Virus record (IMG/VR): IMGVR_UViG_3300011008_000034
Location: 1-64,000 of that record
Source of the DNA: a virus
Lineage: Duplodnaviria; Caudoviricetes
Length of the DNA stretch: 64,000 bases
Strand: one strand, 5' to 3'
The notes below the pieces were generated by a model. It saw only the letters and a program-made list of their open reading frames with translations, made no database searches and had not been told where the DNA came from. The position numbers and the translations under genes are program-made. Below are positions 35,341 through 49,883 of the stretch, in pieces; the stretch's first letter is position 1; each line of letters begins with the position of its first letter.

Positions 35341-35541
35341 GTGGTGATTTTTATGAAGAAGGTGATTAGATATTTCCCAGGTATTCAACTGGAATTAAAT
35401 GAACAACAATTTATTATTAAAAAATATAATGAGGTTGATTGTTGGGATTTAAAAGATAATTTATTTTGTACTGTAATCGCCTCGAGTATTTTTGGAAAAA
35501 TTTTTGAATCTATGGTGAAAGAGATGTGTGAATGTGATTAG
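35341..35541 (+). CDS. small hypothetical protein
   Basis: ORF with RBS, overlaps the nrdG start. Confidence 0.55.
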   Translation: MVIFMKKVIRYFPGIQLELNEQQFIIKKYNEVDCWDLKDNLFCTVIASSIFGKIFESMVKEMCECD

Positions 35542-36013
35542 ATTTGCTGGTATAGAAGAAGAATCAACTGTTGATGGTGAGGGAATTCGTTTTGTATTAT
35601 TTTGTCAAGGATGCCCTCACCATTGTAAAGGATGCCATAATCCATCTACTTGGAGTTATGATAAAGGTGACTTTATATCTCCGGAAGAAATTTTATATAA
35701 AATGAAACAAAATGAATTATTAGACGGAATTACTTTGTCAGGTGGAGAACCTTTTGAGCAAGTTGATGAATTGTTACCATTACTAAAATTAATAACTCCT
35801 GAATATAATGTTTGGTCTTACTCAGGATATATATATGAAGATTTAATACAAGATACTAATAAAAAGAAATTATTGCAATACATTGATTATTTGATTGATG
35901 GTCCTTATATAGAAGATTTAAGAGATTTGACGTTACAATTTCGTGGGTCATTAAATCAAAGAATTATAAATGTACAAGAATCATTAAAACAAAATAAAGT
36001 CATGTTAAAATAG
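35528..36013 (+). CDS. nrdG: anaerobic ribonucleotide reductase activating protein (radical SAM)
   Basis: VDGEGIR, CPHHCKGCHN, TLSGGEPF, DG.Y, FRGS.NQR. Confidence 0.93.
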   Translation: MNVIRFAGIEEESTVDGEGIRFVLFCQGCPHHCKGCHNPSTWSYDKGDFISPEEILYKMKQNELLDGITLSGGEPFEQVDELLPLLKLITPEYNVWSYSGYIYEDLIQDTNKKKLLQYIDYLIDGPYIEDLRDLTLQFRGSLNQRIINVQESLKQNKVMLK

Positions 36014-36040: not shown

Positions 36041-36293
36041 ACCTTAATGTAATTGCTATTCCATTTTTATCTTGGACGATTAGATATTCTTTTCCCTTAT
36101 TACAATCTCTTAAGATTGTAACTTGAATATCATCATATGTTTCTGCTTTTTCTAAAATAATTTCATCTGTAGAAAATTTTTGAGAATGTACTTTTTTCTC
36201 TCCAATATTTAATAGCAGAGTAATGATAAAAATAGGGATTAAGAAACACTATATTCCTATTAAGATATTTAAGTTGTCCTTTACTTTTTTCAT
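36039..36293 (-). pseudogene. small membrane protein gene with one in-frame TAG (codon 15)
   Basis: ATGA-coupled to the dnaE stop; reads MKKVKDNLNILIGI*CFLIPIFIITLLL...ILRDCNKGKEYLIV. Confidence 0.5.
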
Positions 36294-37832
36294 TCATCTT
36301 CCCCCTCAAAATTTTTTTCATCAAATGGTTCTATTTCTAAATCTTTAGCAGAAATTCCACCAAATGATTTAGTACCAATAATCTTTAAAAGGCTTCCTTC
36401 TTCAAACAATGATAAATATTTTCCATTTCTATGACCTTCGTTATCAGCATACATATTTTTCCAAGCATAGATTTTTATTGTACCAAATTTTGTCAAGAAC
36501 CAAATATTGTACATAAAACTTTTTCCATTTTTAGTCGGTTTCTTAGTAATTTCATTTACTATTCCAATATAAGATAATCTTTGCCCATCAAAAGCTTCTT
36601 CTATAGGAATTTCTCCACTAGTACTATGACTTAATGCTGGATGAGGAATAAAAGAAATTTCAAACCGATTAATGTCTTTAATATATGCTTTGTATAAGGG
36701 TTCCACTTCATATGCAATTTCTCCAAAATGACCAAAAAATGCTTCTGTAAAATGATTAACTTGCCCCTGTTTTTGTTCTATTAATACACCAGTAGGCTTG
36801 ACTTTTACAGGATAAATATATTTGGATTCAAGTGTTAGATTAAATAATCCTAATTGACTTTCTTTTACAACAATATAATGTTCAAGAGATTTTTTGAATT
36901 TTAATTCAAATTGCTTATGCATGGTTTTATATGTTTTTAATTTGTCTTTTAATGATTTGATTTTTTCTTTTAACTTATCCAAATGAAGCTTTTCATTTTT
37001 TAATTTTGCATTACGTTTAGATAAAAATTTTCGAGTTTCTTCAGCATTGGATAAAATTTTACTTGCATTAGAATTAATATAATTAGCTGCAGTAATTTGT
37101 TCTTCTGTTTCTGGAACATATTTATCTTTACTAATAGCTCGAATCATTTCATCAAAAGCATTTCCTTTGTCAAATTTGATATTGAAATCATCTCTTTGCT
37201 GTTGAGTAATGTAATTAATATCTATAGCATAATTCTTTTCTGGTTTTTTATCAATAGATTCAATATAATATTTAAACCAGATTTCTTGTTTAGACCTGTC
37301 CATGAATATGTAATAATTTGATTCATCTTCAGTTTTTCTTAATTTATTATGATGTTTATATGAATTTGTTTTTAATGGTTTGATTCTTTCTAAAACCTTG
37401 AGCATGTCATCGTTTACTTCTTCTTTAGGAATCTCCAATGGAATTCCTTCAAAAGCCCCAATAGCAATACAAGCTTCTACATTCTTTTTATTTTTTCCTC
37501 CGCCTTCTACTCTATTATAAAAATCTTGAATGGATTTAAATGGTCCATCACTTTGAGCTTTTATAATTTCATCTACAGAAGTTTCTCCAACACCTTTTAC
37601 ACAATTTAATCCCATACGAACAGAATTAGTATCAATATTTTCAATTGTTGCAATAAATTTAGATTTAGAAATATTAGGTGGAAGAATGTTAATTTTAAAC
37701 CGTTCTGAAGTTGCTTCTTTAAAACAAATAGATAAATTACTAATCGCTTCAGCATTAAATAAATGAGTAAAAAAAACTAATGGATAATTAATTTTTATCC
37801 AGGCAGACCAAAATGATATATACGAATAACAT
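36290..37832 (-). CDS. dnaE: DNA polymerase III alpha, C-terminal exon (exon 2 of the dnaE-C gene)
   Basis: open frame from 37831: CYSYISFWSAWIKINYP...LPPNISKS...RMGLNCVKGVG (HhH)...OB-fold-like end. Confidence 0.9.
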
Positions 37833-38135
37833 CACTTAAAAAGTGGACTATCCCATCACCTAAACGGTGCCGATATTATAGTCTCTGAACGTCTAATCAA
37901 AATAATAGATTCATTATTTTGATTATTTCGATGCTGATTGGTTGTTGTTTATGATACTTAGCATTTTCAGCTTATATCCAAAATTTAATTTTTTCTGTCT
38001 TTCGACTGCGATTCACACTTATTTTTACAAATTATGTTGTAGCTTAAATTTTGTTCAACGTTCCCAGCAGTTTAATCGGTTTTTCATCCTATCTTTCGAT
38101 ATGAAGCCACATGTTTATACGAAACGTATACGTCT
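37833..38135 (-). ncRNA. group I self-splicing intron (303 nt, no ORF) in dnaE
   Basis: P AACUGCUGGGAA, Q AAUCAGCAUC, R GUUCAGAGACUAUA, S GGAUAGUCC; 5' exon ends in U (CCAU pairs with GUGG, U-G wobble); intron ends in G; P10 AACAU/AUGUU; splicing restores FNKSH-SICY. Confidence 0.92.
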
Positions 38136-39460
38136 ATGGAATGTGATTTATTAAAGAGATATGCACTATTGTCAATAATCGCTTTTGTTACTTTTTGACA
38201 TGCTTCTTTTGGAATTCCATTTTCTAATCCAATTCGTTCAGCATTATCATAAAAGTACTGAGCTCTATCTTTATTTTTCTTTTTATCTGGTTTTTCCAAA
38301 GCACGACGATAAATATCACTTTCACCAAAAGAAATATTAAACAGAATTGATATTAGAGACATTACCTGTTCTTGATATACTATACCTCCCATTGTAGGAG
38401 CTAAAACATCATCAAAAGGTTTATATCCCATTAATCTGATTTTTTCAGGGTCTTTTTTTCCTTCTACATATTCATCTAATCCTGAAGTACCAGGACGAAT
38501 AAATGCATTTACAGCAGATAAAGATTCCATGTCTTGTGGCTGGATTTTTTTAATTACAGGCTGTGCTGCTGCGCCATCCATCTGAAAAATACCTTTTAAA
38601 TATGCAGCTTCACAAATAAAATCCCATGTTTTTTTATCATTTAATGGAATGGACATTTGTGTATAATTTTTATTGTAATATTGATTAATCATCTTTAATT
38701 CTTCGACAATAATATCAATATTCTTTAAACGCAATATATCGTATTTTATTCCACCTAATAAATCGACTTCTTCTTTACAATATTGAGAACAATCCCAAGT
38801 ATTCCCTGTATCAGTTGGTTTAGAAGATTTAACAGGAATAATATCTGTAACACTTAATTCATTTGGTAATACAACAATTCCTGCAGGATGCTGAGAAACA
38901 GACCGAGGTAAATTTGCAAATACTTTACTATATTTTAGAATGTCTGGATAACGATCAAAAAATTCTTTAATTTCAGGAATAACCAAAATATCATCAAACG
39001 TTTTCATATCATTTGTGATTAATTTAGTAATATTATTTGCTTCTTGCGGTTCAATTTCATATACTCTAGCTACATCCTTAATAACTGCTTTTATCTTTAA
39101 ATTTTGAAATGTAGCAATATTACAACAGTGCTCTCGTCCCCAACGTTGATTACAAAAATCATAAATTTCGTCAGACCGTTTATCAGAGAAGTCGTTGTCT
39201 ATATCTGGAATTACGAGGTGAGTTTCTCCCTGGTCGTCTTTATATGTTCTGGCAGGATTTAAAAATCTTTCAAACAAAAGCTGATATTCGATGGGATCAA
39301 CTTGAGTAATATCTAATGCATAATTCAATAATGACCCTGCACCTGAATTATGTACGATTAGTTTATCTACATTATAAGAATGTTGGTCTCGTACTTCTAA
39401 ATCATATATATCTCCTTTATAGTGAAAAATTTCTTTCTTTTTTATTCGCCTAAATTTCAC
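38136..39460 (-). CDS. dnaE: split-intein C part (38 aa) fused to the DNA polymerase III alpha catalytic core (exon 1 of dnaE-C)
   Basis: YDLEV...HSY....LIVHN|SGAGSL; LLFERFLNPAR, PDIDND, HPAG, KYDIL, GIFQ, YQEQ, FNKSH; IntC = 39347-39460. Confidence 0.93.
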
Positions 39461-39533
39461 GAGATATCCCTCCTTTTAATTTTATTTTAGAAAAAAAGAC
39501 TAAGATTTAATTTCTTAGTCTTAGATAAATGCA

Positions 39534-41018
39534 TTATTTACTTTTCAAATAAAAACCATTAAATGATTGGTTTGTATTAACAATTTTTTTATATGTTTTA
39601 TAAACAATTCCAAATAATGGATAAAGTAATTTTATGCAATTAAATTCTATTATGTATTCTCCATTTGTTAAAAATAAATCTATTGGCTTTACATTTTTTC
39701 GTATTTTACATTCAAATCGAAGATAAGTAAAATTTTCAAATCCTTTCAATTTATATGTATTTAAATCAAAATCATGAAATAAATCATCGTTATACAAATA
39801 TGTACAAATAAGATTGTTTTGTTTATCAAAGACTTTTGTTACTGTTTTATTTCTTTTTACATTTGCTAATTCTCTATATATACGATTACTTTTTAAAAAA
39901 TTTAATGTTTTTTGGGGAATGTTTTTTTCAGTACATTTTTTTACAACATTTATTCGTTCATCATGATTTAAATTTAATAAATTTATCTGTTTATTAAAAA
40001 TTACAACGTTAAATAAATCATAAAATTGTTGTTGACCAGCTGTTTTACATACAGAAAAGTTATTAAAATTCCGATAAAAAACAAGTTGAATTATTTTTGG
40101 AATATATAAATCTTGAGAAACATAGTTATCATTAAAAATGTGTTTATATTCATAATAAAATTTTATAAGATTAAAAAAAGAATTAAAACAATAAAGTATT
40201 TCTATATGATGATATTTATCATCACATAATTGTTTATGAACATTTCCCCATTGATAATGAACATGTGTTTTATTGTTTTTCAAATCAACGCACTTGTAAA
40301 TAAACCCTAAATAATCATTCGTCTTTTTTATATGTTTTGTTAATGGAACATTAAAAAAAATAACATCATTAAGAAAATTTTGATAAAAATTAATGCTATT
40401 TAAATCAAAAGGAATTAAATTTAATAAAATTTCCTCATTAATAAAACAAAATACCATGTTATGTTTTTTACAAAAAATTTGTGCCGCTTTTTTCTTTTTA
40501 TCAGAACTTGTACTTTCTTTTCCTTTAATTTCAAAAATTGTATTATTAATGATAAAGTCTGGATGAAAAGTTTTATTTTCATAAGAGATGTTTATGTCAC
40601 AACGTTTAACATTTAACTTGTTTTGATAACAAGAATATAAAAATGCTAACTCATAACTACTTTCAAATTTAATTCCATGATAAAATCCAGTTAAATTATT
40701 TTGATGGATATAACATTCTTGACAAACTTGTTCAAATTTTTTATGTTTTCTCTGCGTTAAAAAAGATACTGTTACATATTTTTCTTTATGACAATATTGA
40801 CATGTTATTTGTACTTTAATGCTTGAATTTTTTTTAAATTCATTCCTATAAGTTAAAAACATATCATAAATAATAAATCCATTTTTATCATAAAAAATAA
40901 AAATAAATTCTGGAATTTTATCTTTATAGTGGTTATTAAAAGTACTCATATTATCACCTCTTATTTTTTTATAAGAAAAAAGACTAAGTTTCGTTCTTAG
41001 TCTTATCGGTAAATGCAT
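39534..41018 (-). CDS. free-standing putative homing endonuclease (PD-(D/E)xK type with zinc finger)
   Basis: CQYC...CQEC, GFYHGIKFESSYEL, HPDFII...EIKG; likely start 40949. Confidence 0.6.
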   Translation of the reverse strand: MHLPIRLRTKLSLFSYKKIRGDNMSTFNNHYKDKIPEFIFIFYDKNGFIIYDMFLTYRNEFKKNSSIKVQITCQYCHKEKYVTVSFLTQRKHKKFEQVCQECYIHQNNLTGFYHGIKFESSYELAFLYSCYQNKLNVKRCDINISYENKTFHPDFIINNTIFEIKGKESTSSDKKKKAAQIFCKKHNMVFCFINEEILLNLIPFDLNSINFYQNFLNDVIFFNVPLTKHIKKTNDYLGFIYKCVDLKNNKTHVHYQWGNVHKQLCDDKYHHIEILYCFNSFFNLIKFYYEYKHIFNDNYVSQDLYIPKIIQLVFYRNFNNFSVCKTAGQQQFYDLFNVVIFNKQINLLNLNHDERINVVKKCTEKNIPQKTLNFLKSNRIYRELANVKRNKTVTKVFDKQNNLICTYLYNDDLFHDFDLNTYKLKGFENFTYLRFECKIRKNVKPIDLFLTNGEYIIEFNCIKLLYPLFGIVYKTYKKIVNTNQSFNGFYLKSK

Positions 41019-41320
41019 TATTCTTCTTTATAATTATAAGCTTCGCTTGCTCCTTCAATATCTCCAGAATAATCAAGTAATTTATTTGAAATGGATAATA
41101 CATCTCTTACTGTTTCTTCTACATTTTCAGCCATAGAACCAAGATTATCATACCAACCTTGAAGTTGTTCATCACATTCTTGACCCATTTTATAAACAGG
41201 TCCACCTTTTTTTACTAAATCGTAAATATCTTCTAATTGATAAGCAATTTCTTCTAATTTTTGAGTATATTGAGGAAAATTATTTGCAGCTACTTTTTTT
41301 AATTTTGCCAATTTTATCAC
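41018..41320 (-). CDS. acidic helical protein with AKLKKVA leader
   Basis: AAGGAG RBS, late-type motif upstream. Confidence 0.7.
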   Translation of the reverse strand: MIKLAKLKKVAANNFPQYTQKLEEIAYQLEDIYDLVKKGGPVYKMGQECDEQLQGWYDNLGSMAENVEETVRDVLSISNKLLDYSGDIEGASEAYNYKEE

Positions 41321-41395
41321 TCCTTTTATTTTTCTAAAATAAAATAGCTTATTTATGCAAAAACTATTTTATTTAAAAGAAAGGAGGCGAGAAAA

Positions 41396-41935
41396 ATGCC
41401 AAAAATTTTTATTAACCCTGGACATTCTCCAGATTTTAATAATGGCGGAGACCCTGGTGCAGTTTCTCCAAGAACTGGATTAAAAGAAGCTGAAGTGGCA
41501 TTAAAAGTTGGAACTTTAGTCAAACAATATCTTGAAGCAGTCGGTTATGAAGTATATTTACTTCAGAGTGATAGTTTAGGATATATTTGCAATGAATCTA
41601 ACAACTGGGATTCTGATTATTTTGTAAGCATCCATTGCAATGCAGCAGCGAATTACTCAGCTCGCGGAGCAGAAACCTGGGTATGTGCTGGTAGTGTAAA
41701 AGGTAGAAGATTAGGAGATGCGATTCAAAAACAAATTATTGATAATATTCCCATTACAGATAGAGGCATTAAAGTTTCCAGTGGATTATATGTATTAAAA
41801 AATACTGATTGTCCAGCGGTATTAGTTGAAATGGGATTTATAACAAATGAAACTGATGAACAGTTGTTGAGTGATAGTCATTATCAAGACGAATTTGCTA
41901 GATGTATAGCACGTGGTATAAGTGACGTACATTAA
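41396..41935 (+). CDS. N-acetylmuramoyl-L-alanine amidase (Amidase_3), endolysin
   Basis: INPGH, DPGAV, E, FVSIHCNA, RG.E, LYVLK.T..PAVLVEMGFI. Confidence 0.92.
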   Translation: MPKIFINPGHSPDFNNGGDPGAVSPRTGLKEAEVALKVGTLVKQYLEAVGYEVYLLQSDSLGYICNESNNWDSDYFVSIHCNAAANYSARGAETWVCAGSVKGRRLGDAIQKQIIDNIPITDRGIKVSSGLYVLKNTDCPAVLVEMGFITNETDEQLLSDSHYQDEFARCIARGISDVH

Positions 41936-42030
41936 AAAGAGAGGATTTATTCCTCTCTTTTGATTAAAAATTAGGAGTATCACTCCCTGTATTTTATTTA
42001 TAAATAACAATATACAAGGAGTGATTTTTT

Positions 42031-42621
42031 ATGAATAAATTTTTAATAAAAAATCTCTATAAAAATAAATCTCCTATCCGGAGTAGAATTATAATAGCAA
42101 ATATATATAAAAAATTTGCAAACTTTTTAGATGATTTAAAAAAATTTAAGAAATTTGAAAAGTACTTTATAACAAAAGAAGATTCTGATAAATTAGTAGA
42201 AGAAAAAAAGAAAAATGAAGAAGGAATTTATGATAATGATTTAGAATGGTGGGAACCAACAGGCAAATTAGAAGAATTTTATATGGCTACTCATCCAGGA
42301 AATGGTGGATTAACGCCTTTATATGCGAAATGTCATATGATAGAATTTATACGTAGAGGAAATAGTTATCCAGCATGTTTAGCAGCATTATATAAATGTG
42401 ATGAAAATGGAAAAGAATCTGGTTCTATGATAGGTTATGAATGTTATGAAGATACTACTATAGCGCAAGGATTAAAAAACATGATAGATAAAGGCATGAA
42501 AGGTTGGGGAAAACAATATCATTGTTATGGAAATATTTATTATGATATAGAAGATTTGAAATTAATAGTAATAAAAGCATATGAACAAATTAATAAAGAT
42601 ATAAAAAAAGAGGAGAAATAA
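42031..42621 (+). CDS. module gene A, family A1
   Basis: DDLKKFK.FEKYFIT.ED, EWW..TG, LA.LYK.D.NG...G.M. Confidence 0.78.
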   Translation: MNKFLIKNLYKNKSPIRSRIIIANIYKKFANFLDDLKKFKKFEKYFITKEDSDKLVEEKKKNEEGIYDNDLEWWEPTGKLEEFYMATHPGNGGLTPLYAKCHMIEFIRRGNSYPACLAALYKCDENGKESGSMIGYECYEDTTIAQGLKNMIDKGMKGWGKQYHCYGNIYYDIEDLKLIVIKAYEQINKDIKKEEK

Positions 42622-42674
42622 ATTCTCCTTTTTTATTAAAAACTATTTACATTGGCAAAGAAATGTGTTATAAT
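42602..42674 (+). promoter_or_regulatory. terminator followed by a sigma-A-type promoter for gene B
   Basis: hairpin 42602-42636; AAAACTA-TTTACA(42646-42651)-17-TATAAT(42669-42674). Confidence 0.78.
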
Positions 42675-42705
42675 ATAATCAGGATAAGGAAAGGAGAAAA
42701 TATCA

Positions 42706-43239
42706 ATGAAAGAATTAACTAAACAGATGAAATCAGTTTTAAAAACTTTTGATATGCTTGACAATAGAGACATGACAATTAACGTTTATACAGATATAAA
42801 AAATGATGTAAAGGGATTTATACATTTCGCATATGTCCATTATGTCGGTAGTGGATTAAAAGATACATATAAAGCAAAACTTAAATCAGAATGTCATTCA
42901 TTTGACAATACTGCAGATTTAAATATTGAATTTTCTTCATATGAATCTAATGAAGATAGAATTGTTATTGATAAAACAAAAATGTTATCGCATCGACTTT
43001 TAAAAATAATTTTTTATATTCATGATCGTCAAAAAATGTATGATGTTTATGACATATTTATAAAATGGGGAAACAATCGTCAAAAACCCATAAAATATGA
43101 AGATACTGAAATGACCATGACTATTCCGCCTGATGATCCTAGCGATCCTAATTACAAAACGTACATGAAACAGTGGTTTAAATTTTGTGAAGAAAATCCC
43201 GAATGGATTCAGAAATTAAAAGAAGATGGAGTTATTTAA
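42706..43239 (+). CDS. module gene B, family B1
   Basis: homologous to 23109..23612. Confidence 0.78.
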   Translation: MKELTKQMKSVLKTFDMLDNRDMTINVYTDIKNDVKGFIHFAYVHYVGSGLKDTYKAKLKSECHSFDNTADLNIEFSSYESNEDRIVIDKTKMLSHRLLKIIFYIHDRQKMYDVYDIFIKWGNNRQKPIKYEDTEMTMTIPPDDPSDPNYKTYMKQWFKFCEENPEWIQKLKEDGVI

Positions 43240-43255
43240 AAAGGAAGTGTGACAA

Positions 43256-43558
43256 ATGAGTGATACATTAGAAAAGTTCTTTGAAAAGTATGGCGACTTT
43301 GGCAAAACAGACAAATATTATGGTGATATGCATCAAGTTTTAGCTGGACAAATTTATGCTGGTGGTGTAGATAACAATCCCGGTAAGAAAACTGCATGGG
43401 GATTTGATAAACAAAAACCGAGTTTTGCAGGACGTAAAGACGTTGAAAAAGCAGCAAGAGAATATGCGGAAAGCAGACCTTGCATAACAAGAAAAGCAAC
43501 GTCTGAAGAACTCGCAGAACTCGATAAGTTATTAGCTAAAAAGCGACGTTATAAATGA
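43256..43558 (+). CDS. hypothetical protein
   Basis: RBS present, clean ORF. Confidence 0.7.
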   Translation: MSDTLEKFFEKYGDFGKTDKYYGDMHQVLAGQIYAGGVDNNPGKKTAWGFDKQKPSFAGRKDVEKAAREYAESRPCITRKATSEELAELDKLLAKKRRYK

Positions 43559-43735
43559 TTGAGCACTTTTGAGAATGAATTGTTTTATCCAATTAGAATA
43601 AAATAAACCCCATAAATCAGACAATAAGCTAATTTATGGGGAAAGGTGTATTGTGCCTTTTTTAGATTACAATTATGCAAAATACAAAATTATATAATAA
43701 AAAGACACGGTGAATAAAATGTTTTTGCATTTTAT

Positions 43736-43993
43736 TCACTTTTCTCTTTTTTGTAGTCTTTTTTTACCTTCGCATCCTCCAAAATCTCCGCCTATACTTA
43801 AATCATAGCCTTGATAAGACCCGCCAGCACTGTCACTAGAACTATCAGTTGCTCCGTAATCATCTCCGCCATAATTTCCTGCATTATCATAATAATCACC
43901 ATAGCCCCAAAGCCAAGGATAACCATAAAAAGCATGATACGGGTACTGATTTGAAGGAGTTTTTTTTACTAATCTTTTCAAACTAATCACCAT
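43736..43993 (-). CDS. Gly/Tyr/Asp-rich low-complexity protein with KRLVKK leader
   Basis: ORF translation. Confidence 0.6.
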   Translation of the reverse strand: MVISLKRLVKKTPSNQYPYHAFYGYPWLWGYGDYYDNAGNYGGDDYGATDSSSDSAGGSYQGYDLSIGGDFGGCEGKKRLQKREK

Positions 43994-44261
43994 ATTTAAA
44001 AATATATTCTGATATGATTTTTTTTCTTATATTCAAAATATCTTGTTTCGCCTTCTCAATGAAATTATTATATGTAGCATTATTATTAATAAAGATATTT
44101 TTCATAAATATCTTTTCTGTTCTTAACATTTCATCTATGATAATATATCGTCCATGCAAATGTTTCTCATTAGAAAAAATAGTTATTTTCAAAGGAATGT
44201 ATTCGCGTCCGATTTCATATGTAACCATAATAGAAAAATGTTTTTTATTAATAATTATCAT
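43983..44261 (-). CDS. hypothetical protein
   Basis: coupled ORF in a minus-strand operon. Confidence 0.55.
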   Translation of the reverse strand: MIIINKKHFSIMVTYEIGREYIPLKITIFSNEKHLHGRYIIIDEMLRTEKIFMKNIFINNNATYNNFIEKAKQDILNIRKKIISEYIFKYGD

Positions 44262-44925
44262 ATAGAGTCATTCCTACTTTATTGACATAATCTCCATATA
44301 TAATAGAAATAGTTTCCATTAACTGTTCAAATTCTTGACATGTATATAAATATTTAATTGGCTGATTATTATAATCAATATTGATTCGATAAAATATATC
44401 TTTTCTTTTAAAAATATCTACCAATGAATATTTATCCATATTTTTTAAAATAGCATTGATGTCAATAAATAATCTATTTCGTTGAGAAGTAAAATTATAA
44501 TCGCAATATGCTAATATAAATGGAAAACAAACTTGTTGAACATATTTTTCTATATCTTTTTGTCTAATCATACATTCATAATGTAAAAAATTATCACTAA
44601 ATAAAATTTCTTTTATTGATACAATTTTGACATCTATTCCAACATTATAGATAGAATTAAAATCAATGCCTGTATATTTATCATTAGTAATACTATAAAT
44701 AGATTTGTCTCCTTTATATGTAAAAAATCTTTTACATAAATTGCTTTCATAAAAATCTATTTCCGCCATACGCCCTTCAATTAATCGTTCTTCAAATTCT
44801 TCTAAAGGTTGGATAGTTTTTTGATATATTGGCATAGTAATATCATTGAATATGGGTGATGTTTGAACTAAATGTTTCATAAAATTTGATTGATATTTAG
44901 CTAATAATTTCTCCTTTAATCTCAT
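44248..44925 (-). CDS. hypothetical protein
   Basis: coupled ORF. Confidence 0.65.
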   Translation of the reverse strand: MRLKEKLLAKYQSNFMKHLVQTSPIFNDITMPIYQKTIQPLEEFEERLIEGRMAEIDFYESNLCKRFFTYKGDKSIYSITNDKYTGIDFNSIYNVGIDVKIVSIKEILFSDNFLHYECMIRQKDIEKYVQQVCFPFILAYCDYNFTSQRNRLFIDINAILKNMDKYSLVDIFKRKDIFYRINIDYNNQPIKYLYTCQEFEQLMETISIIYGDYVNKVGMTLYDNY

Positions 44926-45967
44926 TATATTTTTCCTTTAATATATGATATAAAATAAATTGATTGGATTGAATGATTTTATCATATTCTGTAAAAAACA
45001 TATCATCATTCATATTCTGGAATTGTTTGACACGTTTTTTCTCTCTTAAATAAAACCAGATGTTTTTAAATGCTTCATCTCTATCTGAAATACATTTAAA
45101 TTTATTATATATGGTTTGAAAAATATCATGATTTTTATAATAAAATTTATCTTGTCTCCATGAAACTGGATAATTAAAAATAATTAAATCTTTTTGTGGA
45201 ATAATTTTTATATCATCATTACTTCTAAAATCTGTATAAATATCTTCTTTGAAAATGACTTTATATTTTAAATTATTACGTTTTGCAAGCTGCATTCCGG
45301 CAAAACAACGCTCATTGTAATCTAATGGTTTTGCCGCATACACTTCTATGATTTTTTTATCCATAATAATATTGGGGCGATAATAATAAGTTTCATTTTT
45401 ATATTGATACGAAGTAAATAAAGTACAGTTTTTAGTATTAATATGTTCATATAAAAAATTTAATTCTGTAGTATTAGAAAAAAATACACCTTTATATAAG
45501 CCACATAAAGAATTTTTAATTTTAAATACTTTGCGAATAATATTCTCTTCGTTTGTTTTTGGTTTTTGCAATCTTTTCCTTGGTTTAGGCGGTTTTTTTG
45601 GACGAGATTGATTAATGCGGACTGATATACAAGAATTACAAATTGATTCGTCTTTAAAATGTTGTCTGGCTTTTAATTGCCGAACTTGTTTGATTTCTGT
45701 TGTGTTACATTTTTTGCAAACATATTTAACATATTGTTTTGAAAATTCAGAAAAATATTCCTTATATTTAAAATAAATGTCATAAGAAAGAGGATATTGT
45801 TTATCCCCTTTTATATAAAAAAGTTCTTCTGGAAAATTTTTAGTTTTTAATTGTTTTACAGTACTATAACAACGTCCACATAAATTTTCTTTTAATCCTA
45901 AATTTTTTCTGTCTTGAATTTGGTTGTCATTTAGAGTAATTTCTTTTTTACATCTTTCACAAATCAT
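44897..45967 (-). CDS. degenerate homing-endonuclease-like protein (paralog of 46223..47380)
   Basis: CxxC pairs, GLYKGVFF...EL.FL; the PD..ExK site reads PN...EVY. Confidence 0.6.
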   Translation of the reverse strand: MICERCKKEITLNDNQIQDRKNLGLKENLCGRCYSTVKQLKTKNFPEELFYIKGDKQYPLSYDIYFKYKEYFSEFSKQYVKYVCKKCNTTEIKQVRQLKARQHFKDESICNSCISVRINQSRPKKPPKPRKRLQKPKTNEENIIRKVFKIKNSLCGLYKGVFFSNTTELNFLYEHINTKNCTLFTSYQYKNETYYYRPNIIMDKKIIEVYAAKPLDYNERCFAGMQLAKRNNLKYKVIFKEDIYTDFRSNDDIKIIPQKDLIIFNYPVSWRQDKFYYKNHDIFQTIYNKFKCISDRDEAFKNIWFYLREKKRVKQFQNMNDDMFFTEYDKIIQSNQFILYHILKEKYNEIKGEIIS

Positions 45968-45987
45968 TATTGGTCGGCCTTTCTTAA

Positions 45988-46257
45988 TTACTCAATTTCA
46001 CAAAGTACGTCATCTTCTTCTAATTTTCCGGCTTCTATCCAAATTGGAATTCTTACTCCATTATCGAAGTCTTCTTTTTTTATGGCTAGTATTTTGTGAT
46101 CCTGAGTAATTCCCTCAATTTTTAGATTATTATCCATATACAATTTTACCATATTTTCGTCCACATGGTAAATAAATTTACTATCAACTATATGTAATTG
46201 TTCGTCTTTGGAGTAAACAACATCACACTTTAATTTGTCCATTTTTTGATTGTTCAA
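45988..46257 (-). pseudogene. orphan truncated copy of the dnaE split-intein N part
   Basis: GITQDHKILAIKKEDFDNGVRIPIWIEAGKLEEDDVLCEIE nearly matches the end of 47381..48871; lacks Cys1 and the extein. Confidence 0.8.
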
Positions 46258-47380
46258 AAATATAAAATATGATAAATAACGGAGAATCTAAAACTTTTAA
46301 ATATTCTTCGGTGAATTTACTTATTGACATACGATTAAATTTATTGACCAATTTTTTCTCTTTTAAGAAAAACTGAATATTGTTCATCATTGATTCTCTA
46401 TTTGTATCTTGTTTATATAATGCTAATAAGTCTTGTACCCATTTTTTGTTTTTATAATAATATTTATTATTTTCAGTATCCCATAATTTTGGATAATGAG
46501 TTAAAATTAATTCATCATCTGGAATTTTTTCTAATAATTCAGGCTCATCAAATTTTTCAATAATGCAATTAGCATCATACAAAAGATATTGCATGTTATG
46601 TTCTTTTGCTAATTTTTTTCCAGCATTACATTTGTTTATATAATCATCAAAACAATTTTTTTCATTAGAATCAAAACTACCCTTATTTCCTTTTACTTCA
46701 ACAATATAATTATTCATAATAAAATTAGGAAAGTAATAATGTAATTTTTGGTCTTTTTTACGAATATATTGTGTATATAAATTACAGTTTGAAATTTGCT
46801 TATCTTGATTTTCATATAAAAACGATAATTCAAAACTACTAGCAAAGTAAATCCCTTTATAAAAACCACGTAATGTATTACTTTTTCCAAATGTACGTTT
46901 TATTGCAAAATACGGGTCTGATTTAACTAAAACTTCTATTGAGTCTTTTATCTTATTTTTTACTTCATCTTTACATTGAACTTTTTTCTGAGCTTCACTA
47001 TTTTTTTGTTTCCATTCTGGTAAATTGCAAACATATTCCATAATATGGTTAGGACAGATGTTTAAGTCTTTTGTATATGTTTTACGTTTTAATCCGCGTG
47101 GTTGATTTATAAATTCTTTACCACATACTAAACAATTAAATTTTACATATTCATGATTATGCATTGTGAATAAATCTTTATATTTTACATACAAATCCCA
47201 AGGAATAGGATTTAATTTTGTTCCTAAATACCATAATTCCTGAGGACGATTTTTCTTAATATATGATTTTACAACTCTAAAACATCGAGGACATGTATCT
47301 ATATGTATACCTAAATCTTTTCGTTTTTGAATTCCTTTTTCTTTTTGCGGAAATTCCTTTCCACATCTAATACATTTCAT
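46223..47380 (-). CDS. homing-endonuclease-like protein abutting IntN
   Basis: CxxC pairs, GFYKGIYFASSFEL, YFPNFI...EVKG (PD changed to PN). Confidence 0.65.
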   Translation of the reverse strand: MKCIRCGKEFPQKEKGIQKRKDLGIHIDTCPRCFRVVKSYIKKNRPQELWYLGTKLNPIPWDLYVKYKDLFTMHNHEYVKFNCLVCGKEFINQPRGLKRKTYTKDLNICPNHIMEYVCNLPEWKQKNSEAQKKVQCKDEVKNKIKDSIEVLVKSDPYFAIKRTFGKSNTLRGFYKGIYFASSFELSFLYENQDKQISNCNLYTQYIRKKDQKLHYYFPNFIMNNYIVEVKGNKGSFDSNEKNCFDDYINKCNAGKKLAKEHNMQYLLYDANCIIEKFDEPELLEKIPDDELILTHYPKLWDTENNKYYYKNKKWVQDLLALYKQDTNRESMMNNIQFFLKEKKLVNKFNRMSISKFTEEYLKVLDSPLFIIFYIFEQSKNGQIKV

Positions 47381-48871
47381 TTACTCCACCTCGCACAAAA
47401 TATCTCCTTCTTCTAATTTATTTGCTTCAATCCATATGGGAATTCTTATACCATTATCAAAATCTTTCTGCTTTATTGCTAAAACTTTATGGTCTTTTGT
47501 AATTCCCTTAATAATATTATCATTTGTAGATAAAGAAACTAAATCTTCATTGACATTATAAATATATTTATTATCAACAGGATATAATTTTTCATTTTTA
47601 GCAAAAACTAAATTGCCTATTTGAATGTCTTTAATTTGTTTGAATCCATGATTTGTTAAAACGTTACAATCTCCAACCAAGCATCCTCTCCCACTTCCGC
47701 AAGGTATTTTTGCTTTATTTCGCACAAAATCAATAATCTCACGATATAAAATAAAGTATGTTTCAAATCCCATTTCTTCGATTGTTTTTAATTCATGTAA
47801 TGCGCGAATTCGATCACTTTTAGTTAAACACCATTTTTGGACCAATCCATTTAAAAATTCATATTCTAAATATTGGGTTTTGTCTTTTTTATCGGATTTA
47901 ATCTGTTCTTTCCAGTAATTATAAGCTTCATCATCTTGAGGAATTTCTGCAGATGGCAAATAATGATTTAAGGTTTTTAATTCTACATTACATTGACTTG
48001 CAATATCTTCCGTTCGTTCAATAGCATCTAATACTAATTTTTGATTTAAATCTCCATGAAAATCTTGAAATGCTTTTATGATTTCATCTTTAGTCATGAT
48101 ATAATAAGTATTTCCTTCATATGTCCACCTGTCAGGATTGCTCATAACATCTTTTGACTGCATACATAATAATACATCATGAGCTTCTTTAAATGTTTTA
48201 TTAATGTAATGAGCATCAGTTGTAGCCACTGTAGGAATTCCCATTTCTTGACTTAATTGCAATAATACTTCATTGACTATTCCTTGCTGTTTAATTACAG
48301 TAGGCTGGATTTCTAAATAAAAATTATGATTGAATAATTTATCATAATAGGCAATCCATTTTTTAGCTTCTTCTATATCATCTTTTAAAATGCACCTGGG
48401 AATTCTTCCTGCAACACATGCAGATGTAGCTATTAGATGGTCTGTCCCAATTTCTTCTAGCATACTATCATCAATACGTGGACGATAATAAAATCCTTTT
48501 GTAAATCCTAAACTAGATAATTTTGAAATTTGTTTATATCCTTCGTAATCTTTAGCTAAAATAATCATATGTTCATTTGGATGGTCTTTGTAATGTTCTT
48601 TGTCTTTATTCAAAGCATCATCTGTTACATAAAATTCTTCTCCAATAATCTGATGAATATTATAATTTTTACATAAATTATAATGAAACATTGTGGCATA
48701 TAAATTCCCATGATCTGTAATGCAACTATGTATCGTATGATTTTCATTATGTTTTTGATTAAATTCTTCTGTAATTGCTTTATTTCTTACTACTAAATCT
48801 TCCATTCTTAAACAAGAATCTAATAACGAGTATTGGGAATGTACATGTAAATTGACAAACATTTTTGGCAT
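47381..48871 (-). CDS. dnaE: DNA polymerase III alpha N-terminal part (PHP domain) fused to split-intein N part (100 aa, 47384-47683)
   Basis: LHVHSQYSLLD, TDHGN, FYYRPRID, TTDAHY, GSGRG|CLVGD (intein block A), GITKDH (block B), ends L..GD.L. Confidence 0.93.
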   Translation of the reverse strand: MPKMFVNLHVHSQYSLLDSCLRMEDLVVRNKAITEEFNQKHNENHTIHSCITDHGNLYATMFHYNLCKNYNIHQIIGEEFYVTDDALNKDKEHYKDHPNEHMIILAKDYEGYKQISKLSSLGFTKGFYYRPRIDDSMLEEIGTDHLIATSACVAGRIPRCILKDDIEEAKKWIAYYDKLFNHNFYLEIQPTVIKQQGIVNEVLLQLSQEMGIPTVATTDAHYINKTFKEAHDVLLCMQSKDVMSNPDRWTYEGNTYYIMTKDEIIKAFQDFHGDLNQKLVLDAIERTEDIASQCNVELKTLNHYLPSAEIPQDDEAYNYWKEQIKSDKKDKTQYLEYEFLNGLVQKWCLTKSDRIRALHELKTIEEMGFETYFILYREIIDFVRNKAKIPCGSGRGCLVGDCNVLTNHGFKQIKDIQIGNLVFAKNEKLYPVDNKYIYNVNEDLVSLSTNDNIIKGITKDHKVLAIKQKDFDNGIRIPIWIEANKLEEGDILCEVE

Positions 48872-48914: not shown

Positions 48915-49883
48915 TTATAATTCTCCATATCTGTCTAAAATAAATACTAATTCATTTGTAATAAGTTTCTTAAATTTATCTAATGTCTTTTGGCTATAAT
49001 GCATTTTTCTATAATTATATAATGCTAAGAAAGCTGCATTTGAACGCCAGTATTCTGAGTCAATATCTAATAACATTTTCTCTATGGTTTCTACATCTAT
49101 TAATCCAATCATTTTTCGAGTAGTTTGTTCTACATTTAAAAATGTTTGAATATCATTGGAACTGAATTTTCGTTCAATTTCTAAAGAACCATAGACAATT
49201 TGTTGTTCTTGCATAATATCATTTGCCCAAGATAATTGTTCTTTATATAAATGGAAAGAATCAACTATATGAGTATATATACCGACATTAAGATTTAATT
49301 TATTTGCCATAATTGACTGTAATGTAGAAAAATTAAAAACATCATAGGGATATCCAAACATGATATCATTACTTCTCATAAATACAATCATATTTAATTT
49401 ATTTTCTCTAATAGAAAAACGAATTAAATTGGTACATGGTTTATCTTTTGTTGGCTGATAATCTCTTGTTGGGTCAAATAATACTATGGTAGCTTGTCGT
49501 GAATTTGGGTCTTTTTGCAATTGATGAAAAGCTTCTTCGAATTGATTTATTCCATGATAATCAAAAATTCTCTGGCCATAAGCACCATTTAATGTTACAC
49601 CATCATCAGAATAATTTAACCAATTTTTATTATAATGAGCAATATGATTTGCATCATTACTCTTTTGAAGAATCCATCCTAATTCACCTAACATAAAACC
49701 ATAATTGAGCTTTCTAGAATCACTGAAGATGACATTTTTCAATGGTTCCTTTATGGTTATAGATACTGGCGATATTTCTAACGTATCCATGCCTCTAGGA
49801 GATACTGATTTTCCTTCATTTATTAATGTTCGGATTAAGACAGGATATGAATCAGTAAAAGTTTTAAATTCAAATATTCTCAT
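48915..49883 (-). CDS. thymidylate-synthase-superfamily dCMP hydroxymethylase (T4 gp42-like specificity)
   Basis: YGQR, SRQA, D.PCT, MRSND..FGYPYD; Asp at the position where ThyA has Asn. Confidence 0.8.
   Translation of the reverse strand: MRIFEFKTFTDSYPVLIRTLINEGKSVSPRGMDTLEISPVSITIKEPLKNVIFSDSRKLNYGFMLGELGWILQKSNDANHIAHYNKNWLNYSDDGVTLNGAYGQRIFDYHGINQFEEAFHQLQKDPNSRQATIVLFDPTRDYQPTKDKPCTNLIRFSIRENKLNMIVFMRSNDIMFGYPYDVFNFSTLQSIMANKLNLNVGIYTHIVDSFHLYKEQLSWANDIMQEQQIVYGSLEIERKFSSNDIQTFLNVEQTTRKMIGLIDVETIEKMLLDIDSEYWRSNAAFLALYNYRKMHYSQKTLDKFKKLITNELVFILDRYGEL

Follow-up and report, generated by a model that had tools for sequence, protein, structure and literature searches.

The window analysed here is the first 64 kb (64,000 nucleotides, nt) of the 177,647-bp IMG/VR virus record IMGVR_UViG_3300011008_000034, which is rated about 36% complete. 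Its GC content is about 27%, and the results fit an uncultured giant phage with kinship to Bacillus phage G. It carries the gene for a DnaE-type DNA polymerase III (Pol III) alpha subunit in two distant halves. The N-terminal half (DnaE-N) ends in an N-intein (IntN), the C-terminal half (DnaE-C) opens with a C-intein (IntC), and DnaE-C is interrupted again by a group I intron. The best-supported reading, held with considerable confidence from the sequence evidence, is that a single DnaE would be produced by RNA self-splicing of the C-half followed by protein trans-splicing of the two halves. This mechanism had been put forward in an original prediction made from the nucleotide sequence of the window. 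It is favoured by the conservation of the catalytic residues, by intron pairings that are intact and by a homologue without the intron, and it stands with both reactions as predictions. All features of that prediction which were evaluated are present at the positions it gave. The elements of the polymerase gene are listed below (aa, amino acids; E, E-value).

47684..48871 (-), DnaE N-extein of 396 aa, covering the PHP domain and the beginning of the palm, with ..GSGRG at its end (Pfam PHP, E 2.7e-34; DNA_pol3_alpha, E 6.3e-08)
47384..47683 (-), IntN, 100 aa, with Cys1 (CLVGDC), block B TKDH and an acidic C-terminal part; stop codon at 47381..47383 (Pfam PT-HINT, E 0.0011, under the cut-off)
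39347..39460 (-), IntC, 38 aa, with a basic N-terminus, block F YDLEV..H and block G LIVHN (Pfam Intein_splicing, E 0.0018, under the cut-off)
38136..39346 (-), DnaE C-extein exon 1, from Ser+1 (SGAGS) to FNKSHS plus 2 nt of the following codon (Pfam DNA_pol3_alpha and finger domain)
37833..38135 (-), group I intron, 303 nt, without an open reading frame (ORF) (Rfam RF00028, full model, 27 bits, E 1.4e-4)
36290..37832 (-), DnaE C-extein exon 2, 513 codons plus 1 nt, helix-hairpin-helix (HhH) and C-terminal domains (Pfam HHH_6, E 1e-12)

Two halves of the polymerase gene and their junction

The DnaE-N ORF (47381..48871, minus strand) encodes 496 aa, in which the N-extein terminus ..IPCGSGRG is followed by 100 aa beginning CLVGDC. 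From its stop codon to the start of DnaE-C there are 7,920 nt. The DnaE-C ORF (38084..39460, minus strand) has a GTG start, and its first 38 aa, MKFRRIKKKEIFHYKGDIYDLEVRDQHSYNVDKLIVHN, end in ..DKLIVHN and are followed by SGAGSLLNYALDIT. The prediction of a DnaE-N ending in GSGRG and a 100-aa IntN (found at 47683..47384), and of a 38-aa IntC (..VHN/S, the slash marking the splice junction) opening DnaE-C about 7.9 kb away, is borne out. DnaE-C is matched by Pfam DNA_pol3_alpha (E 5.8e-45) and by the finger domain (E 1.1e-32).

The position of the break was established by alignment to solved Pol III alpha structures. The alignment of DnaE-N to the Taq and Escherichia coli Pol III alpha structures reaches GPGRG, while exon 1 of the C-extein aligns with E. 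coli DnaE 363-769 and resumes at G363/S364. As the N-half ends at GPGRG and the C-half starts at E. coli S364, the insertion lies between G363 and S364, and ligation of the two halves would restore GRG-S as had been proposed. Intein-free homologues read GPGRGS(A/S)(A/C)GS at this junction. A Lys/Glu-rich stretch of some 90 aa in exon 2 (residues ~659-750 of the spliced C-precursor), predicted to be helical, is missing from the homologue in the relative G001.

In the two complete relatives described below (G001 and G002), no PolA or PolB family polymerase was found and each possesses only one DnaE. On this basis the label of replicative polymerase is reasonable, and it is reasonable to regard the DnaE-type Pol III alpha as the only recognisable replicative polymerase of the phage.

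Residue conservation in the split intein

The window contains the full class 1 residue set, namely Cys1, TxxH, block F Asp and His, terminal His-Asn and Ser+1. In block A, Cys is the first intein residue after the N-extein (GSGRG/CLVGDC), and this residue (C397) is invariant in 28 aligned homologues. Blocks F and G with the +1 nucleophile read IYDLEVRDQHSYNVDKLIVHN/S, where the block F Asp and His, the penultimate His, the terminal Asn and Ser+1 are all present. Conservation was followed in metagenomic homologues, taking the best 120 DnaE-N homologues for the N-half. At least 55 of them end in GRG/C plus 92-108 aa, and T.[DE]H is kept in 55/55; Cys1 was itself part of the pattern by which these split-type N-halves were selected. 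Among the C-halves which open with IntC, His-Asn and Ser+1 are found in 22/22 and the block F Asp, in the form Y[DE][LFI], in 21/22. These intein residues stay conserved while the identity of the exteins drops to about 35%.

The two intein halves carry opposite charges, with a mean net charge of -8.6 for IntN and +3.2 for the first 15 residues of IntC. Pairing of halves by such electrostatic attraction is known from other split inteins. A profile built from seven IntN sequences matched the bacterial intein-like (BIL) domain 2lwy in the PDB (E 1.3e-4) and, more weakly, gp41-1 and the PI-SceI/VMA intein (E 0.5-1). A search of the PDB with the single IntN sequence gave no significant intein match, and no characterised split intein was matched significantly by IntN in the PDB searches. 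The description of this element as a candidate new orthogonal split intein is fair, as a candidate. Homologues with contiguous inteins carry the precomputed domains PF14890 and PF13403.

Group I intron in DnaE-C

Exon 1 reads ..AYLFNKSHS and then continues for 16 unrelated residues to a stop codon. The 303-nt group I intron which had been predicted at FNKSHS is found at 38135..37833, where it interrupts FNKSHS/I. At gathering stringency, Rfam gave nothing in the whole window. In a relaxed local search of 1.1 kb, 37824..38139 (minus strand) was aligned to RF00028 positions 1-253 with an insertion of about 100 nt, and the intron core GUUCAGAGACUAUA...GGGAUAGUCC was aligned to the RF00028 catalytic core with high posterior probability. 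The splice sites are placed at 38136/38135 and 37833/37832, so that the last base of the 5' exon is U and the last base of the intron is G (..AAGUG). P1 is formed by CCAU/A and UGUGG, with the U.G wobble located at the 5' splice site, and P10 by AUGUU of exon 2 and the AACAU which adjoins the guide sequence. An unconstrained minimum free energy fold also returned P1 and P7 (z -3.2).

Joining of the exons in silico gave CAT TCC ATA TGT TAT, exactly the junction proposed earlier, in a single open frame of 955 codons reading FNKSHS-ICYSYISFWSAWIKINYP; the ligated RNA is predicted to read CAUUCCAU/AUGUUAU. The intron-less gene of G001 reads FNKSHS-VCYSYIAYWCAWVKANYP at this place. The intron-less homologue L003 has FNKSHSVCYSYIAYW where the spliced window sequence has FNKSHSICYSYISFW, and BLASTP runs unbroken across the spliced junction (residues 1-658 against 4-631 of L003, 54.7% identity). 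The close relative P0136, comprising 15 member sequences from other assemblies, shows an identical read-through tail, so the intron allele is not a one-off. A core-motif scan of viral contigs found the same core in 43 phage loci. The same genome has a second group I intron outside the window (L006, G000:C1:150753-151084, minus strand), which scores 78 bits against RF00028.

The cyanobacterial split DnaE intein is inserted just before FNKSH, the same motif as the window intron. Two kinds of selfish element have thus independently targeted one conserved stretch of the polymerase.

Distribution of the split gene in relatives

The same split was found in six relatives, where the distance between the halves, measured on IMG/VR records, ranges from 4.85 to 22.7 kb as follows.

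G001, 416 kb, rated 99% complete, halves 13.7 kb apart
G002, 504 kb, rated 100% complete, gap about 22.7 kb
G003, gap about 9.0 kb
G005, gap about 7.3 kb
G006, gap about 5.5 kb
G004, gap about 4.85 kb

The occurrence of gene-filled gaps in all six indicates that a long gap is normal for this phage group. The gene order is colinear between the window and G001, and comprises thymidylate synthase, DnaE-N-IntN, an endonuclease gene, a homologue of a 225-aa ORF, an opposite-strand amidase, endonuclease genes and IntC-DnaE-C. The original prediction had regarded Ser+1 at the GRGS site and the many-gene gap as unusual. This did not hold, as both are common to dozens of metagenomic huge phages and the intein of phage G occupies the same site.

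The region has no close counterpart among named phages. A megablast search with 12.6 kb of it against 50,697 phage records gave zero matches, and the best identity of its proteins to those of named phages is about 33%.

Some members of the group have additional interruptions of the gene. P0007 and P0039 (L012-L015, L017) possess a second, contiguous intein in DnaE-N (..SSAC/F...HN/CLAGRIP), at a place where the window is uninterrupted (SACVAGRIP). The DnaE C-halves of G004, G005 and G006 (L089-L095), of P0125, P0129 and P0144-P0180 and of phage G (gp339) are broken again elsewhere, with fragments that begin DIDSDF or DIPLDD..TWD.

Genes and signals between the halves

The gap holds about 12 ORFs, four of them on the plus strand. 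An endolysin-like Amidase_3 gene is one of those on the plus strand, in keeping with the earlier account of about a dozen intervening genes including an opposite-strand endolysin. The main features of the gap are listed below with the two genes that flank the polymerase locus.

48915-49883 (-), thymidylate synthase (E 5.9e-31), flanking the locus
46223..47380 (-), HEG1, endonuclease-like, 385 aa, with the invariant Asp replaced by Asn (PNF..EVKG); begins one base past the IntN stop and is 30% identical to the G001 gene at the same position
45988..46257 (-), orphan IntN fragment (IntN'), 89-aa ORF, keeping TQDH, without Cys1 or an N-extein (BLASTP 60% to IntN residues 24-100, E 7e-32)
44897..45967 (-), HEG2, endonuclease-like, 356 aa, with Asp to Asn and Lys to Tyr changes (PNI..EVYA); a 34% identical paralogue of HEG1
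41396..41935 (+), N-acetylmuramoyl-L-alanine amidase, endolysin-like (Pfam Amidase_3, E 5.7e-44); G001 has a homologue at the corresponding place and in the same orientation
39534..40949 (-), HEG3, 471 aa from the ATG at 40949, with intact zinc ribbon and E..PD..ExK; ends 73 nt upstream of IntC
39496..39522 (-), hairpin and T-run, after which come AAAGGAGGG and the GTG that starts IntC-DnaE-C; the approximately 70-nt unit occurs again at 40980..41004, upstream of HEG3
35528-36013 (+), radical-SAM activase of the anaerobic ribonucleotide reductase type (Fer4_12, E 3.8e-40), flanking the locus

The thymidylate synthase and the radical-SAM activase place the polymerase in a neighbourhood of nucleotide metabolism.

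The start of HEG3 is backed by P0241 (471 aa, 96% identical). Direct Pfam searches with HEG1, HEG2 and HEG3 gave no match. A word-based search for HEG3 homologues found one near-identical protein only, and an exhaustive profile search with the HEG family recovered 2,187 relatives. In an alignment of 50 of these sequences, the four Cys residues of the ribbon and E...PD...ExK are invariant. When 50 relatives were scanned with Pfam, Tn7_TnsA-like_N was detected in 24/50, and others showed Phage_endo_I, PDDEXK_3 and NUMOD modules. The AlphaFold model of HEG3 has a pLDDT (predicted local distance difference test) above 90 for residues 10-180. In Foldseek, its best interpretable matches are TnsA (1f1z; prob 1.00, root-mean-square deviation 2.5 over 129 columns, E 0.11) together with Bax1 and other restriction-fold nucleases, at E values no better than 0.01-0.1. 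Taken together, the family motifs, Pfam matches and fold search classify these proteins as TnsA-like PD-(D/E)xK nucleases, neither Vsr-like nor GIY-YIG. HEG1 and HEG2 are probably inactive, judging from the loss of invariant catalytic residues, while HEG3 is intact.

The IntN' fragment shares with IntN a DNA repeat of 132 nt at 73% identity, and the two proteins align at a level (about 60% identity) which IntN' shows to every close IntN, its own neighbour included. A recent tandem duplication giving the IntN'-HEG2 unit was considered and rejected. The equidistance of IntN' from all close IntN sequences, along with the 34% identity between HEG1 and HEG2, points to a unit that is old or imported. 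The first ATG of IntN' overlaps the HEG1 stop codon, so the fragment could be translated.

A direct repeat of about 70 nt brackets HEG3, with one copy preceding HEG3 and the other preceding IntC. It consists of a stop codon, ATAATGCATTTA, a hairpin (AAGACTAAG..CTTAGTCTT), a run of T and a Shine-Dalgarno sequence, and has the look of an intergenic control element that was duplicated or of the termini of the endonuclease cassette. IntC-DnaE-C has a strong Shine-Dalgarno sequence of its own (AAAGGAGGG) before its GTG start. Terminator-like sites are frequent in the region, with 11 observed against 2.8 expected, and several of them lie between the halves on the minus strand. These sites and the four plus-strand genes of the gap indicate that the two halves are separate transcription units. 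At 43608-43740, where the plus-strand block meets the minus-strand gap genes, back-to-back terminator-like hairpins with stems of 12-14 pairs were observed.

Proposed mechanism and alternative explanations

In the proposed mechanism, two separately transcribed genes would make one DnaE-type Pol III alpha. The first product would be DnaE(1-396) fused to the 100-aa N-intein. The second transcript would lose the 303-nt group I intron by self-splicing before translation, and the spliced mRNA would give the 38-aa C-intein followed by the remaining 917 residues. The acidic IntN may then dock with the basic start of IntC to form a class 1 Hint domain, in which Cys1, TxxH, the terminal His-Asn and Ser+1 would ligate the exteins. 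The predicted product is a polymerase of 1,313 aa in which the GRG-S nucleotide-binding motif is recreated.

Several observations weigh against this mechanism. The Pfam Hint/intein scores on the two halves (E about 1e-3) are under the curated cut-offs, and the intron score of 27 bits is below the RF00028 gathering score of 50. No close homologue of the intron was available for covariation analysis, since BLASTN and nhmmer similarity to the 43 core-motif loci is limited to the P7-P9 core. The start of IntC has a terminator-like hairpin 36 nt upstream, and no promoter was found for the C-half. The orphan IntN', if expressed, could compete for IntC. It keeps the part of IntN nearest the split and has no Cys1, and one may speculate that it would act as a decoy capturing IntC-DnaE-C.

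The intein halves might merely dock the two chains in the manner of an intein clasp, giving a non-covalent heterodimer without splicing. Two-piece phage enzymes joined by remnants of mobile elements are described (PMC3045599). Every splicing residue is nevertheless intact, in the window and in the sampled homologues alike (Cys1/TxxH 55/55; His-Asn/Ser+1 22/22), which suggests selection on the chemistry and not on docking alone. Moreover, all solved Pol III alpha structures have an unbroken GRG-S motif, and it is within this motif that the break falls. Such a heterodimer is considered unlikely. More improbable still is the view that the intron is a decayed group I relic, so that a truncated DnaE-C ends 16 aa after FNKSHS, or that its splicing needs a protein cofactor. 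The shortfall in the Rfam score (27 bits against 50), the insertion of about 100 nt in the P5 region and the absence of covariation support among the 43 core-motif loci would fit a relic. Against them stand P1 with its U.G pair, P10, P7 and the terminal G, all intact exactly where the reading frame demands, as well as the 513-codon open frame with an HhH domain kept by exon 2. The persistence of the intron allele in P0136, with its 15 member sequences and identical tail, speaks against decay in the same way.

There is very little to favour a decaying or mis-assembled dnaE in a phage that uses the polymerase of its host. The sequence is a metagenomic contig of estimated 36% completeness, and HEG1 and HEG2 look eroded. 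However, the two-gene layout recurs with intact frames in independent assemblies, including the two records rated 99-100% complete, and all Pfam-detected Pol III alpha domains are kept across both halves. RNA self-splicing of the C-half followed by protein trans-splicing thus remains the preferred reading.

As to the origin of the split, most likely free-standing TnsA-like PD-(D/E)xK homing endonuclease genes would have invaded a contiguous intein of the phage G kind, and further genes may have gathered between the halves afterwards. It is also conceivable, though doubtful, that the space between the halves serves as a cargo bay guarded by homing endonucleases, where accessory genes such as the amidase and small ORFs are swapped as a block between co-infecting huge phages. 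The DnaE halves, being essential, would have to be co-inherited, and endonuclease breaks at both borders would drive recombination. If true, this would explain why the gap differs in size (4.85 to 22.7 kb) and in content, with the intein halves remaining intact.

Comparison with known split and contiguous inteins

The closest published arrangements are the fractured genes of Dassa et al. 2009 (PMC2677866). That study describes 26 fractured loci, three of them in DnaE, at three insertion points all unlike the cyanobacterial one (a 'different integration point'). As in those loci, a phage-type DnaE is present as two ORFs with split-intein halves and adjoining free-standing endonuclease genes, and the origin proposed there, by endonuclease invasion of an intein, fits the window locus. 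According to the same study, only an endonuclease gene lies between the halves of the fractured genes, whereas the window has about 12 ORFs in 7,920 nt and its relatives have gaps of up to 22.7 kb. The endonucleases of the fractured genes are reported there as Vsr-like or GIY-YIG, in contrast to the TnsA-like PD-(D/E)xK enzymes of the window. The model proposed there (PMC2677866) holds that the halves become uncoupled in the genome once the endonuclease is lost. The window locus, with endonuclease genes at both borders but many genes between the halves, fits this model as an intermediate.

Bacillus phage G, also a huge phage, has a related DnaE (34% identity). Its gp329 (JN638751), annotated merely as 'DNA polymerase III; DnaE-like', contains an intein of some 300 aa inserted at exactly this site, likewise with Ser+1 (GPGRG/CFVPG...LAVHN/SAAGS). 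The phage G intein is contiguous and cis-splicing, while that of the window is split. A search of the PDB with gp329 matched polymerase chains only. Further downstream the polymerase gene of phage G has another break, beside a homing endonuclease gene and at a position unlike that in the window, and self-splicing introns in this gene are mentioned by Iyer et al. 2021 (PMC7824862).

The cyanobacterial Ssp and Npu DnaE inteins, at insertion point a of PolIII-alpha (Novikova et al., PMC4760082), share with the window the host protein, uncoupled genes, trans-splicing and similar sizes of the halves (IntN about 100 aa and IntC about 36 aa). They occupy another site and use Cys+1, in contrast to GRG/S and Ser+1 in the window. 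In cyanobacteria hundreds of kb separate the halves and no endonuclease genes adjoin them, whereas the window halves are separated by 7,920 nt and adjoined by endonuclease genes. The Npu and Ssp DnaE intein chains were absent from the PDB matches to IntN, even at E up to 10.

From the fractured-gene set, gp41-1, NrdJ-1 and IMPDH-1 resemble the window intein in phage origin, Cys1/Ser+1 chemistry and a small IntC. They reside in other host proteins, have no significant sequence similarity to it (gp41-1 is the weak profile match at E 0.5) and are experimentally characterised, while the window intein is known from sequence alone. These three Ser+1 split inteins are already in use.

Splicing at both the RNA and the protein level in an essential gene of DNA metabolism has a precedent in bnrdE/bnrdF of phage SPbeta, where an intein and group I introns occur in one gene (Lazarevic 2001, as cited in PMC4760082). 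The SPbeta intein is contiguous and lies in a ribonucleotide reductase, in contrast to the split intein in DnaE of the window.

Significance of the split polymerase gene

The arrangement itself was already known, from the fractured phage DnaE of 2009 and from phage polymerase introns, and the window is a well-conserved and well-populated new example of it. A search of the literature, incomplete in its coverage, found no paper describing a GRG/S split intein. Selfish elements have heavily colonised the single replicative polymerase gene of these phages: inteins occupy at least two sites, introns are present, and of the three endonuclease genes two seem eroded. The locus documents an intermediate stage of the published gene-breaking model, one that has been stable throughout a clade of phage G-related huge phages. 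It provides dozens of diverged alleles of a Cys1/Ser+1 split intein with halves of 100 and 38 aa. This family has no sequence relationship to the inteins employed today in protein ligation, and is thus a reasonable source of new and possibly orthogonal tools.

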